DNA of 37,779 bases from Thermoplasmatales archaeon SW_10_69_26 (lineage in GTDB: Archaea; Thermoplasmatota; SW-10-69-26): contig PXUB01000016.1 of assembly GCA_003009755.1 (NCBI GenBank), positions 1 through 37,779 of the forward strand, written 5' to 3'. The notes under the pieces were generated by a model. It ran no database searches and was not told where the DNA came from. It was given only the letters and a program-made list of their open reading frames with translations. Positions within the stretch are counted from its first letter, which is position 1; the number at the start of each line of letters is the position of its first letter. A program made the translations under genes and the position numbers. This document shows positions 15,454 to 37,554 of this stretch, piece by piece.

Positions 15454-15924
15454 ATGAAGATCACGAAGACCAGCCTGCTCGAGGCCCCACCGGAGTGGGT
15501 CTGGGACCGCATCCAGGAACCCGCGGCGATGAAGGAGATGTCCAAGCCGCTCGTCTCCCTGGAACCGATCGACCCGCCGCGGTTCCCAGAGGAATGGGTC
15601 GACGGGGAGACCTACGAGGCGCAGGTCGAGCTGCTTGGCCTGATCCCGGTGGCTCGACAGACGATCGCGCCCCGACGCCTCGAGGCCGACGGAACACCGG
15701 GGGAGGCCCTCTACCGGTTCAAGGACGAGGGCTCGGGGACCCTGTTCCCGACGTGGGACCACACGATGACGGTGCGAGAGACCAGCGACGGGGCCTCGGC
15801 CTACACCGACGAGATCGAGGTCGGCGCGGGCGTGTTCACCCCGCTGGTCTATCCGATCGTGAAGTTGCTCGTCGCCCACCGGCACCGGCGCTGGCGCGAG
15901 TTGGCAAGCCAGGAGACGAGCTAG
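15454..15924 (+). CDS. SRPBCC/polyketide-cyclase-like protein
   Basis: I.APPEWVW, W.HTMTV, YTDEIEV, and C-terminal helix HRHRRW. Confidence 0.75.
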   Translation: MKITKTSLLEAPPEWVWDRIQEPAAMKEMSKPLVSLEPIDPPRFPEEWVDGETYEAQVELLGLIPVARQTIAPRRLEADGTPGEALYRFKDEGSGTLFPTWDHTMTVRETSDGASAYTDEIEVGAGVFTPLVYPIVKLLVAHRHRRWRELASQETS

Positions 15925-16200
15925 GGAGACCTCGCGAGGGAGGGCCCCGGGATCGGGACCGTTCGGCCGTCACGCAGGACGGGATCGGCTGGGATCATCC
16001 AGTCTCGTTCGTTGCTGGGCAACGTTCTCCGGCGTCCCGTTCCTGCCCGTCTCTTGGTGGCGGCTGCGAGGTGATGGGTCTTTCGCCAGGAACCGTCGAG
16101 GGAGGGCCGGGTGCCGGCCGACCCGTCATCGGGCCGACGCGAGACCGAGCGATATGCGCAAACCTTAGGAACGCTGTCCCCTACCCCCGGATGTCCTCTC

Positions 16201-16283
16201 GCGGGGGTCGCCAAGCGGTCAACGGCGCGAGGCTTAGGACCTCGTCCCATAGGGGTTCGCAGGTTCGAATCCTGTCCCCCGCA
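16201..16283 (+). tRNA. tRNA-Leu (anticodon TAG)
   Basis: Acceptor stem GCGGGGG/CCCCCGC plus discriminator A. Anticodon arm CGAGG-CTTAGGA-CCTCG, long variable arm, T-loop GTTCGAATC. CCA is not directly encoded (followed by TCCA). Confidence 0.96.
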
Positions 16284-16580
16284 TCCACAACGCCGAGGGG
16301 GACAGGATTCGAACGACGTTTGATCGCGAAGGCCGACACCCGTCGAACGGCCTTCGCGAGAGCCCGTCCGAGCCTGCGAGGACGGGCGAAATCCTGTCCC
16401 CCGCATCCACAACGCCGAGGGGGACAGGATGAGAACCCTGGTTCGATCCTGAAGACCGACGAACACCGCCCGGTCTTCAGGAGAGCCCGAACACACGAAC
16501 CGCACCACGTTCGGGCGAAATCCTATCCCCCGCATCCACAACGCCGAGGGGACAGAATGAGAACCCTGGTTCGATCCTGA
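16263..16580 (+). repeat. tRNA-linked structured repeat array (3 copies of the tRNA 3' end, period 122/129 bp)
   Basis: ~41-bp unit AATCCT(G/A)TCCCCCGCATCCACAACGCCGAGGGG(G)ACAG(G/A)AT at 16268, 16390 and 16519, with hairpin-rich spacers. Confidence 0.9.
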
Positions 16581-16712
16581 CAACCGACGACACTACCCCG
16601 AGCGACCCCCTGTCCCTCCTGCTGCCTCATCCCGCCCCACACCTTTGCCCGGATGGCTCCCTGATGCCCGGCTGACGCGGGAGGATCGGCCTGACCGTCG
16701 GCGGGCGAGCCC

Positions 16713-17384
16713 TAGACTGCCGGCTGTGCTTGGGTTAAGCTCTCGCCGCCCTCAGGCGGTGAAAGCGCGGAGCCGAGACGAAGGTTCGCCCGGATCGAAG
16801 ATCCGGACTCTCGCGAGGATCCGCCCCTGAGGCCGGCCTCGCGTGCAGGCGCCGGTCTGAGGCGGGCAATCTCGTTGTCGCCCTCCGTCGACAACCCACA
16901 GGGGGTTTCCTTCCTCGGGCTCCGCGACCTTGCCTCGCTCATTCGCACGAGCCCTCCGGGCTCGTACTCTCGGCAGACCGTGCCCGGTCTCCCGAGGGTG
17001 CTGACCGTTGGCTCTCAATAGAGGCTGCCTTCTCCCGCTGGTCGAACTGGCGCGATATGAAAACTGCCAACGCCCGAGCTAGAGGAACTGGAACTCAGTC
17101 TCGGAGGGTCCGGGGTCCCGCCAGGTTACGAGTTCTGACGGGAGTCGCATCGGGGGGCAGAGGAGGAAAAGGGCCCTTGTCGTCCGTGACCGGGCGGTCG
17201 AGCTGGTGATCGGCGGCACCGAGCGCCCTCGTCTTTTTCGGTCAACCCGTCTCTCCCGGTTGGCTTGATGGGTTAGATGGACTGGTCACGGTCCGTTGGC
17301 CGCACGAAGCCCGATTGAAAGGCCGCGTTCAGCACCCTCCCGAGACCGGCGCGAGAGCGTAAGCAAAACACGTCCGGCAGTCTA
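16713..17384. mobile_element. Non-autonomous TIR element, copy 2 (672 bp, long form)
   Basis: TIRs TAGACTGCCGG/CCGGCAGTCTA. The first ~50 bp and last ~42 bp match copy 1, and internal blocks match copy 3. No transposase ORF recognised. Confidence 0.8.
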
Positions 17385-17408
17385 GGCTGGACCTCTTCGA
17401 TTGCCTTC

Positions 17409-17885
17409 CTACCCGTCTCCGTCCCCGCCGTCGACGATCTCGGGCTTGCCGAGCGTGGTCTGCTCGAGCTCGTCCTTCTCGACCTCCTCCTTGACGCCCA
17501 CGTCGAGATCCTCGCTCCAGTCCCCCGTCTCCTCGGCAGCGCGCTCGATCAGCTTCTGGCGCTGAGCCGCGCTGTCCTCCTGCCAGCCGGTACCGAGAGC
17601 GATCGCGGCGATGATGTCGGCCTGCAGCTGCCCGAGGTACCGGGAGATGATCACGAACAGGCCGGTGAACACGACCGTGATCCCTGTCGTCGCGCGCGCC
17701 AGCCGTTGGGTGAGCTCGCGGACCCCGGCGAGCGGGGGGAGCACGCTGGCGATCCAGGCAGCTGCCGTCACGATGAACCCGATGTTGAGCAGGAGGATGA
17801 CGAACAGGCGGACGCGGACGGCCAAGCGCAGGCTTTCGGCCCGCTGTTCGAGGACCTCCGAGTAGGGGGAGGCGAAGTCCTGCAT
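17409..17885 (-). CDS. Membrane protein with two TM helices and an acidic tail
   Basis: Hydrophobic segments LFVILLLNIGFIVTAAAWIASVL and TGITVVFTGLFVII. Start uncertain. Confidence 0.7.
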   Translation of the reverse strand: MQDFASPYSEVLEQRAESLRLAVRVRLFVILLLNIGFIVTAAAWIASVLPPLAGVRELTQRLARATTGITVVFTGLFVIISRYLGQLQADIIAAIALGTGWQEDSAAQRQKLIERAAEETGDWSEDLDVGVKEEVEKDELEQTTLGKPEIVDGGDGDG

Positions 17886-36615: not shown

Positions 36616-37554
36616 CTATCCGGGCACGGAGGCCGTCAACAGCTCCGAGAGGGAGACGGCCGTGCAGCTCGCGACCGGAACCCCGCACGATCCCTGGCCG
36701 GCCTCGTTCGACGCGTCACCCGTCCCGCTCGCTGCGAGGCAGCCAGCGCCCGGGTCGCCGCAGGAACTCTCGCCGGCCTCGTTCGAGGCGTTCCCCGTGC
36801 CACTAAGGGCCACGCACCCGACACCGAGGTCTCCGCAGGCTTCGTCGCCGGCCTCGTTCGAGGCGTTCCCCGTGCCACTAAGGGCCACGCACCCGGCGAC
36901 GAGGGCTCCGCAGGACGGCGACAGGGACCCCTCGGCGCCGTTCGAGGCGTTCCCCGTGCCACTGAGGGCGAGGCACCCGGCACCCGTGGAGCCGCAGGAT
37001 GCTCCCGTGGATCCACCGGCTCGGTTCGAGGCGTTCCCCGTCCCGCTCGCGGCCACGCAGCCGACACCGGTTCGGCCGCACGACTCGTCGGCGCCCTCGT
37101 TCCGCGCGTGCCCGTCGAGGCTGACGGCCACGCAACCGACACCGAGGCTCCCGCAGGTCACCTGGCCCTCCGAGGCGTCGTTGCTCGCGTTGCAGGTCCC
37201 GCTGACGGCGACGCAGCCAACTCCGACACGCCCACAGCCGACGGAGCCCGCCTCGTTGTCGGCGTCGCCGGTCCCGCTGACGGCCACGCAACCGACCCCC
37301 ACGAAGCCACAACCGCGATCGCCGGCCTCGTTCGAGGCGTTGCCAGTACCGCTCGCGGTCACGCACGCGCTGGGACCAGTGCAGTCCGTGCCTTGAGCGT
37401 CGCCCCGCACGCTGAGACTGGCCACGGTTCCGCACGTGTCGTCCTTGAGGCTCGCCTCCACCGGCTGGCAACCGTCGGCGAGGGCGACGGGAGCGACTCC
37501 CGGGAAGGCGGCGGCGACGAGCAGCACGGTACAGCACACGACGGGTGATTCCAT
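36616..37554 (-). CDS. Secreted Cys/Gly-rich tandem-repeat protein (312 aa, 9 repeats of 25-28 aa)
   Basis: Signal peptide MESPVVCCTVLLVAAAFPGVAPVALA from ATG 37554. Repeat consensus C-(V/L)-A-x-SGTGNASNEAG-x(3-6)-CG-x5. DNA repeats are visible at about 36690-37360. Confidence 0.85.
   Translation of the reverse strand: MESPVVCCTVLLVAAAFPGVAPVALADGCQPVEASLKDDTCGTVASLSVRGDAQGTDCTGPSACVTASGTGNASNEAGDRGCGFVGVGCVAVSGTGDADNEAGSVGCGRVGVGCVAVSGTCNASNDASEGQVTCGSLGVGCVAVSLDGHARNEGADESCGRTGVGCVAASGTGNASNRAGGSTGASCGSTGAGCLALSGTGNASNGAEGSLSPSCGALVAGCVALSGTGNASNEAGDEACGDLGVGCVALSGTGNASNEAGESSCGDPGAGCLAASGTGDASNEAGQGSCGVPVASCTAVSLSELLTASVPG

Follow-up and report, generated by a model that had tools for sequence, protein, structure and literature searches.

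The gene for tRNA-Leu(UAG) in a Thermoplasmata-like MAG is followed by repeated copies of its own 3' end, and the question that this locus raises is whether such repeats act as RNA or belong to repetitive DNA. The original prediction, made from the sequence alone, had offered three readings: tRNA-mimic small RNAs, a switch on tRNA maturation, and a tRNA-targeting non-autonomous element. We analysed a stretch of 37,779 nucleotides (the window), which is contig C14 of this MAG (G000; 2.8 Mb, 69% GC, 95% complete). The proteins encoded in the window include an archaeal-type D-aminoacyl-tRNA deacylase and a DRG-type GTPase; the closest named relatives of the GTPase (79% and 75% identity) come from MAGs labelled Thermoplasmatales/Thermoplasmata archaeon. 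The public runs containing the stretch are halite metagenomes only, and none of them is recorded as RNA.

The array consists of 2.5 units behind tRNA-Leu(UAG), in a region (15924-17409) where no coding-like ORF was found among the GC3-guided ORFs. Its parts are as follows.

16201-16283, + strand: tRNA-Leu(UAG) gene, CCA not encoded (ARAGORN and Rfam)
16268-16283, + strand: repeated segment X, the last 16 nt of tRNA-Leu(UAG), tRNA positions ~58-73 (coordinate check)
16284-16296, + strand: spacer S1, 13 nt, the loop of an 18-bp hairpin in which the 3' part of the tRNA pairs with the inverted arm (sequence, repeat finder)
16297-16405, + strand: unit 1 (repeat finder, folding, covariance model 98.3 bits)
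16297-16314, + strand: unit 1 inverted arm X'ext, perfectly complementary to tRNA positions ~53-70
16309-16323, + strand: unit 1 hairpin C
16324-16359, + strand: unit 1 hairpin A, then a GA linker
16362-16387, + strand: unit 1 hairpin B, then a GA linker
16390-16405, + strand: unit 1 direct copy X
16419-16534, + strand: unit 2 (repeat finder, folding, covariance model 97.2 bits)
16419-16436, + strand: unit 2 inverted arm X'
16433-16444, + strand: unit 2 hairpin C
16447-16482, + strand: unit 2 hairpin A
16485-16516, + strand: unit 2 hairpin B
16519-16534, + strand: unit 2 direct copy X, with one G>A change
16548-~16620, + strand: unit 3, truncated and decayed (repeat finder, coordinate check)

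Of hairpin A, unit 3 keeps the 5' arm alone; it further retains X' minus one base and hairpin C, together with a degenerate X-like stretch at ~16599-16616. Identical copies of S1 are located at 16406-16418 and 16535-16547. The repeat finder and the coordinate check recovered the predicted 18-nt perfect inverted repeat (16263-16280 / 16297-16314), and the tRNA 3' end recurred directly at 16390 (96% over 47 nt) and 16519 (72%) as predicted; the block repeated at these positions is the tRNA end AATCCTGTCCCCCGCA plus 13 nt of trailer. The proposed A stems (16324-16335/16348-16359 and 16447-16458/16471-16482) are both 12/12 complementary, and the four stem positions that differ between them are all compensated. 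The proposed B stems (16362-16369/16380-16387 and 16485-16492/16509-16516) have 8 bp each. Tandem Repeats Finder did not include the array among its reported repeats. About 20 nt upstream of tRNA-Leu(UAG), a 13-nt stretch (16169-16181) is 85% like the repeated tRNA end and complements the inverted arm, perhaps as a remnant, perhaps by chance.

No one contig spans the whole array, which would be expected if it were an assembly artefact. However, overlapping unitigs of run X1 tile tRNA-u1-u2-u3 with 0 differences (none alone spans the entire array), every unit interior is unique, and 10 genomes show this architecture at dozens of loci. Chance is excluded by the fold z-scores and shuffles given below. 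We thus regard artefact or chance as an extremely improbable origin of the array. In contigs of runs X2-X4, 126 nt are missing and 16472 is directly followed by 16599, a one-unit length difference between strains.

Each unit folded alone gives the predicted cloverleaf-type fold, an outer stem with three hairpins. The fold of unit 1 reached −69.2 kcal/mol (z −8.25) and that of unit 2 −57.1 kcal/mol (z −6.64), and in both cases 0/200 shuffles were as good. The reverse strand also folds (z −5.16 for unit 1 and −4.95 for unit 2), and the fold is not strand-specific because the reverse strand is almost as stable. When the tRNA was folded together with its trailer, the 18-bp hairpin was preferred and competed with the cloverleaf. 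The last 2-4 acceptor nucleotides were unpaired in the unit folds, indicating that the outer stem is no true acceptor mimic. Other family units folded singly showed a common four-way junction.

Covariation was evaluated in two alignments. MAFFT followed by RNAalifold gave 21 pairs, with double changes in 16. When 50 units from six genomes were aligned to the covariance model, a procedure that biases the alignment toward the structure, 94.0% of stem cells were paired and 19/21 pairs were doubly changed; 0/500 shuffles reached the observed values, and slid controls paired at 30-45%. The compensatory changes had been taken to imply selection on structure. The pairing is indeed kept, but the step to selection is too strong, because intrastrand template switching can also keep palindromes perfect. 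Conservation of the primary sequence is limited to GGAT-N-GAAC, the feet of hairpins A and B (TCG...CGAGAG...CG...) and GAA-ATCC. Counted in a strand-neutral manner, the stems contain 780 Watson-Crick pairs (~92%), 44 G·T and 28 A·C (p=0.076); there is no clear excess of G·U over A·C, that is, no RNA-strand signature. The + strand was slightly more stable in 28/44 units (p=0.035).

Two kinds of short sequence appear to recur in the hairpin loops: a (C)ACCG motif in the A loops of many units (for example, window 16459-16470), and GAGCGAAGCGAG-like sequences in the B loops across genomes. Hammerhead, hairpin-ribozyme and K-turn readings were rejected, as the required core nucleotides were, by eye, not conserved across units.

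A genome search with a covariance model had been proposed as a check. Model R1, built from 21 units, gave 39 matches at E≤0.01 in the MAG itself, most of them beside tRNAs; BLAST and nhmmer were also used. For 25 of the nhmmer matches, a tRNA lies upstream on the same strand, and 22 of these have an uninterrupted stretch of 11 nt or more, starting in the T loop, in common with the 3' end of that tRNA; the 22 matches cover 17 tRNA genes. The 3' end of the unit fits the adjacent tRNA best in 17/22 full units, with an exact match of 13-19 nt versus at most 12 to any other tRNA call, which bears out the claim that the outer stem and tail follow the cognate tRNA. The five exceptions carry mismatches or are decayed. 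An exact-match test of the inverted arm was weak, the cognate tRNA being strictly better in 7/22 units and worse in 5.

The relation to tRNA genes was also evident without the model. An extra copy of its own last 13 nt lies within 700 nt downstream of 18/51 tRNA calls, an inverted copy of the last 13 nt lies downstream of 4/51, and a copy of the first 13 nt lies upstream of 4/51, whereas wrong-side controls gave 1/51 and 0/51. Perfect hairpins with a stem of at least 10 numbered 322 in the genome, compared with 124 after shuffling. Of the 322, 54 lay no more than 600 nt from a tRNA (39 downstream and 15 upstream) against 7 expected, a 7.7-fold enrichment. First units mostly begin 12-33 nt after the tRNA, a fixed short spacing. 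The array behind tRNA-Arg(UCG) closely resembles that in the window, the nearest relative of unit 1 is a Leu(CAG) unit (80% over 110 nt), and that of unit 2 is a Leu(UAA) unit. The units are mosaics whose closest relatives are at other tRNAs.

Two further kinds of repeat were observed at tRNA genes of G000. Behind the copied ends of tRNA-Gln(UUG), Leu(CAG), Gln(CUG) and Phe there is a second repeat of ~200-230 nt, module X; in the case of Gln(UUG), module X and units alternate with a period of ~340 nt. Other unit types, at Gly(CCC), Gly(UCC), Leu(CAA), Leu(CAG) and Leu(GAG), follow a similar logic with different hairpins. Their inverted copy spans the entire acceptor 3' strand and the discriminator, there is a conserved CTTCTC(C/G)A behind the tRNA, and the direct copy starts at position ~66.

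C42, 19640-19860 and 19990-20200: module X
C47, 53650-53800: module X
C46, 10500-10640, − strand: module X
C19, 72760-72880: module X
C2, 33131-33400: other unit type
C3, 1-290: other unit type
C27, 15300-15537: other unit type
C47, 53377-53530: other unit type

We described the units of the main family in tRNA coordinates. A unit starts with the complement of positions ~70 down to ~50 and a 3-4-nt turn, continues with a direct copy of 53-58 bearing the cognate R57 base and the A-GA-B module, and ends with a direct copy of 59-73 that at times continues into the trailer. In the 'cloverleaf', the 3' third of the tRNA gene pairs with its complement as a perfect hairpin, which a double hairpin interrupts at the 3' border of the T-loop sequence. 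The inverted arm is the Watson-Crick complement of direct arm X and not a copy of the tRNA 5' strand: it reads ACAGG at Leu(UAG) versus GCAGG in the tRNA, and AAGGG at Arg(UCG) versus AGGGG. That it complements the direct arm even at the G·U pairs of these two tRNAs points to templated copying. The inverted arm has uneven edges that extend to positions 66-70, and identity to the tRNA sometimes runs 13-22 nt into the trailer. A primer-binding-site reading was rejected since the inverted arm has no complement of positions 71-76. An origin from mature tRNA was rejected as well, because identity often continues into the genomic trailer and CCA is absent.

A direct-inverted-direct order at both gene ends, an exact complement and ragged inverted-arm edges would also be produced by a purely mutational process. 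Replication stalling or snap-back at highly transcribed tRNA genes would generate direct-inverted-direct triplications, and generic intergenic hairpins would accumulate there, with no element and no function involved. However, the same A-GAGAG-B core and feet are found at 58/59 in different classes with GC from 52 to 69%, covariation is maintained among units of the same genus, and the spacing is non-random. We consider a mere by-product of mutation very unlikely.

Units and their hairpin modules were also detected at places other than tRNA 3' ends. Upstream of tRNA-Ser(UGA) there are three mirror units, matched by the covariance model on the minus strand, with the layout [tRNA 1-23][B and A reversed][24-26][AAA][complement of 26->3]; read on the bottom strand, they have the architecture of the 3' units. 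Decayed tRNA copies next to intact genes also contain the A/B module: in a Leu(UAA) paralog it occurs in the variable arm and the T loop, and in a 5' copy of Val(UAC) in the anticodon loop. Genome G002 has a full-length Val copy, 38 nt before an intact gene, with modules in its D and T loops. A/B-related hairpin modules further occur in non-tRNA intergenic repeats on at least 10 contigs (72-92% identity).

The Leu(UAA) tandem paralog (G000 C29 55142-55440), probably a pseudogene, has promoter-proximal upstream sequence in common with the real gene; its acceptor stem is mispaired, and its anticodon loop would read GGA. Shortly after the array, the window contains two high-copy MITE-like repeats, one nested in the other:

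~16712-16996 and 17337-17386: first MITE-like element
16997-17336: second MITE-like element, ~340 nt, interrupting the first

The region 16712-17386 gave 150 BLAST matches in its own genome, many at contig ends, and its summed contig depth in the halite metagenome runs was 100-5000x compared with ~10x for the flanks. The window also contains tandem repeats at 36683-37365 with a period of 75-84 nt (2-3 copies, 76-94% matches).

Mirror units and dispersed modules bear directly on the possibility that the array is a tRNA-trailer RNA, co-transcribed with the tRNA by read-through from its promoter into the four-way junction. The 9-13-bp outer stem and 3' tail would mimic an acceptor/T-arm minihelix, from which tRNase Z (perhaps also RNase P and the CCA-adding enzyme) would release stable small RNAs; in a variant, pairing of the inverted arm with the tRNA 3' half would switch folding or processing. 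The three modelled helices all covary strongly, and this, like the junction nucleotides conserved across classes and the 12-33 nt spacing of most first units, would suit such an RNA. So would the slight stability advantage of the + strand and the competition of the 18-bp hairpin with the cloverleaf; by eye, there is also no T-run before the first unit and no promoter-like A/T box within units. Nevertheless, the mirror units are antisense and upstream of tRNA 5' ends, and the module is also present in pseudo-tRNA loops and non-tRNA repeats. The excess of G·U over A·C is not significant, the reverse strand folds nearly equally, the last 2-4 nt of the acceptor are unpaired, Rfam gave no match to the array, and two relatives handle the same tRNA without units. 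An RNA of this kind is possible but unlikely, and the tRNA-mimic and maturation-switch readings of the original prediction were not supported, given the mirror units, the modules elsewhere, the reverse-strand folding and the lack of a clear G·U bias.

We examined the distribution of the units in 151 sampled genomes of the phylum. The covariance model (E≤1e-4) detected units in 10 of them, four of which represent other classes (GC 52-64%); in the MAG's own class, 6/21 genomes had units. A tRNA just upstream and a unit ending in its 3' end were found at 20/22 loci of the relatives and at 5/5 in the other classes. Gln-CUG, Leu-UAA, Leu-UAG, Pro-CGG, Glu-CUC, Ser-GCU and Met carry units in several genera or families with similar spacing, and junction nucleotides are conserved across classes of the phylum. 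These recurrent tRNAs and spacings, together with the conserved junctions, are just as compatible with a functional RNA or a protein-binding site passed on by vertical inheritance. In two relatives, tRNA-Leu(UAG) is located beside the same GTPase gene and is unit-free. A motif scan gave 13 matches in viral contigs and 93 in genome contigs, the latter being about the chance number by a rough estimate. Thirty motif loci (all 13 viral and 17 of the 93 genomic) were checked by the model. It confirmed 0/13 viral matches, and the confirmed loci came only from MAGs labelled Thermoplasmatales archaeon, plus one weak Methanobacteriota match (31 bits).

The genome of the MAG also contains larger insertions at tRNA genes. 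Three islands of lower GC (58-62% vs 69%) lie at tRNA-Gly(CCC), Phe and Glu(CUC), each with a tyrosine recombinase adjacent to the tRNA:

C2, 33131-37619: tRNA island
C19, 58992-72370: tRNA island
C1, 107702-122935: tRNA island

The far side of the Gly(CCC) and Phe islands is bounded by a distal copy of the tRNA end, and the Glu(CUC) region has several accreted distal copies and at least two elements, apparently in tandem. Thus, the same tRNA segment does serve as an attachment site in this organism. The Gly(CCC) island ends in a unit plus X, and the Phe and Glu islands have no such unit distally. These three tyrosine recombinases are the only ones found in the genome. One island encodes a tyrosine recombinase, an HTH-N6 methylase and a BamHI-like endonuclease; another observation of gene content, also for one island, is a set of Prim-Pol, methylase, ResIII helicase, HerA and a SIR2-like protein.

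Such islands suggest that tyrosine integrases crossing over in the T loop could have produced the direct copies as attL/attR-type duplications, with the units as leftover arms of integrated elements or as mini-elements mobilised in trans. The inverted arm and the direct copy, when single-stranded, would then rebuild a duplex target, as in CTX phage attP and integron attC. This proposal gains from the repeated segment, which runs from the T loop to or past the 3' end and sometimes 13-22 nt into the trailer, from the islands with their unit-bearing Gly-CCC end, and from the order tRNA-X-S1-X'-C-A-B-X, which would fit single-strand exchange at 58/59 with a folded circle. On the other hand, homologous units occur at no fewer than 17 tRNA genes, whereas one integrase normally means one site; there are just three recombinase genes, all in large islands, and the distal ends of the Phe and Glu islands are unit-free. 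The 5'-end mirror units and the modules in D, anticodon and variable loops misfit T-loop integration, and no viral contig with the unit motif was confirmed by the model. We regard site-specific integration as a doubtful source of the units.

We also searched for enzymes that might act on the units. Cas1 (PF01867), the integrase expected of a casposon- or CRISPR-like system, had 0 matches in G000, with control genomes positive. Y1 HUH transposase (PF01797) gave 0 matches in G000 and was found in 0/5 and 1/4 of the others, that is, in 1/10 unit-bearing genomes, MAGs that are 72-99% complete. With no match to Cas1 and the Y1 transposase found in only one of ten genomes, no enzyme can be assigned to the units. 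This counts against a DNA element: among the enzymes searched, no transposase or other enzyme was tied to the units.

The tRNA-end four-armed hairpin family is previously undescribed. In Rfam 15, searched permissively around the array and at gathering thresholds over the whole window, only the tRNA passed, the next best match scoring 19.8 bits versus 100; the original statement that the cloverleaf form was unrecognised therefore stands, as no Rfam family contains it. A literature search covering the papers proper returned no account of tRNA-cognate units of this kind. We compared the family with the known systems that it resembles. REP doublets of bacteria form hairpins and are mobilised by RAYT Y1 transposases, and the bacterial REPIN is the closest described system. 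PMC3116915 describes compensatory changes in REPINs and a 'clover' alternative fold versus a long hairpin, and its authors propose that target recognition may involve pairing by a tail that complements the 3' end of the element. The units resemble REPINs and REP-BIMEs as short extragenic palindromes with conserved feet motifs and compensated stems that occur as singlets and ordered clusters, and in the competition of a long-hairpin fold with a 'clover' fold. Hairpin palindromes with compensatory changes are present here (94%, 19/21, 0/500). As to dispersal through extragenic space, the 39 model matches lie mostly beside tRNAs, and related modules occur at 10 or more non-tRNA loci. The GTAG/CGTC end tag is absent, the feet here being TCG...CGAGAG...CG...GAA, and no cognate RAYT gene was found, given the sparse Y1 transposase in MAGs of the completeness stated above. 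In contrast to REPINs, the units are archaeal, are bound to tRNA ends and loops, contain target-derived direct and inverted copies, and number tens rather than hundreds.

Tyrosine integrases leave attL/attR duplications of tRNA 3' ends, and CIMEs are cis-mobilisable remnants. The units resemble both in a direct repeat that begins in the T loop and in tandem accretion behind the tRNA, and the islands here use the same sites. Direct repeats of the tRNA 3' part do flank the element; one integrase and one target per family were not found (17 tRNA genes and 3 recombinases in islands). Unlike att duplications and CIMEs, the element is ~95 nt long and gene-free, is associated with at least 17 tRNA species, and has an inverted target copy and 5' mirror forms. 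In integron attC and CTX phage attP(+), folding of a single strand brings two inverted arms together into a duplex copy of a recombination site, topped by a branched variable part. The likeness to these folded sites is speculative, with no cassettes here and no integron integrase or Xer-type context shown. In the E. coli tyrT operon, the last ~19 nt of the tRNA recur in the downstream tandem 178-bp units of rtT at a single locus, whereas the present units have an inverted arm and covarying hairpins and are spread over many tRNAs. Non-canonical archaeal tRNA introns are inserted in the D, anticodon, variable and T loops, which are the same loops that receive the modules here. No bulge-helix-bulge was visible by eye in the unit folds, which are perfect hairpins without 3-nt bulges around a 4-bp helix. 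In contrast to an intron-containing gene, the adjacent functional tRNA is uninterrupted, and the interrupted copies have mispaired acceptor stems.

Taken as a whole, this family of ~110-base four-armed units carrying the end of their own tRNA is most likely repetitive or mobile DNA rather than a tRNA-like RNA. The mirror units, the modules in pseudo-tRNAs and non-tRNA repeats, the lack of a clear G·U excess and the exact-complement inverted arm argue for DNA. The hairpin enrichment on both sides of tRNAs, the mosaic make-up of the units, their patchy distribution, the one-unit difference between strains and the MITE-like repeats in the flank speak for the same reading. More specifically, we propose, with a probability of roughly one half, that the array consists of members of a DNA-level REPIN/MITE-like palindromic repeat family that nests at tRNA-gene ends. 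Of the three readings offered at the outset, the tRNA-targeting non-autonomous element fits best.

The core of such a unit is the double hairpin A-GA-B, in which the feet are conserved (TCG...CGAGAG...CG...GAA) and the stems covary freely. This module occurs at loop positions of tRNA-gene sequence, namely the T loop at 58/59, the D loop at ~20-24, the anticodon loop at 32/33 and the variable region. Since most tRNA genes are apparently single-copy and presumably essential, only arrangements that spare an intact tRNA would persist. The remnant is a terminal fragment of the tRNA gene (50-73 at the 3' end, 1-26 at the 5' end) interrupted by the module and preceded by an exact inverted copy of that fragment. 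Fragment and inverted copy together form the four-way junction, and the outer stem and tail are automatically cognate to the neighbouring tRNA. The module may move as single-stranded DNA into loops of an extruded tRNA-gene strand, and the inverted arm might, as a conjecture, be made and kept perfect by snap-back or template-switch synthesis. Unit subtypes would pile up through repeated events and be lost by unequal exchange between repeated tRNA ends. No recent jump is documented, because units at different tRNAs are never near-identical (at best 80% over 110 nt).

A bolder version, which we think quite unlikely, is that the units are archaeal self-targeting non-autonomous replicators with nucleic-acid-guided, tRNA-directed insertion, their specificity being rewritten from the target at each event. 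The inverted arm would pair with the displaced strand of a transcribed tRNA gene, or rebuild a duplex in a folded single strand, and insertion would then take place at loop positions.

If the DNA reading is true, the family would be an archaeal REPIN-like system specialised in tRNA genes that copies its target in both orientations, and it would raise the question of which enzyme or replication process writes the target copies. Many 'partial tRNA' calls in these halophilic MAGs, and many of their assembly breaks, would be explained as well. Should the RNA reading prove true instead, the units would be a new class of RNA with dozens of structured, tRNA-linked members that have cognate tails. In either case, the family provides a testable system with ~50 aligned units, a covariance model and strand-specific predictions.
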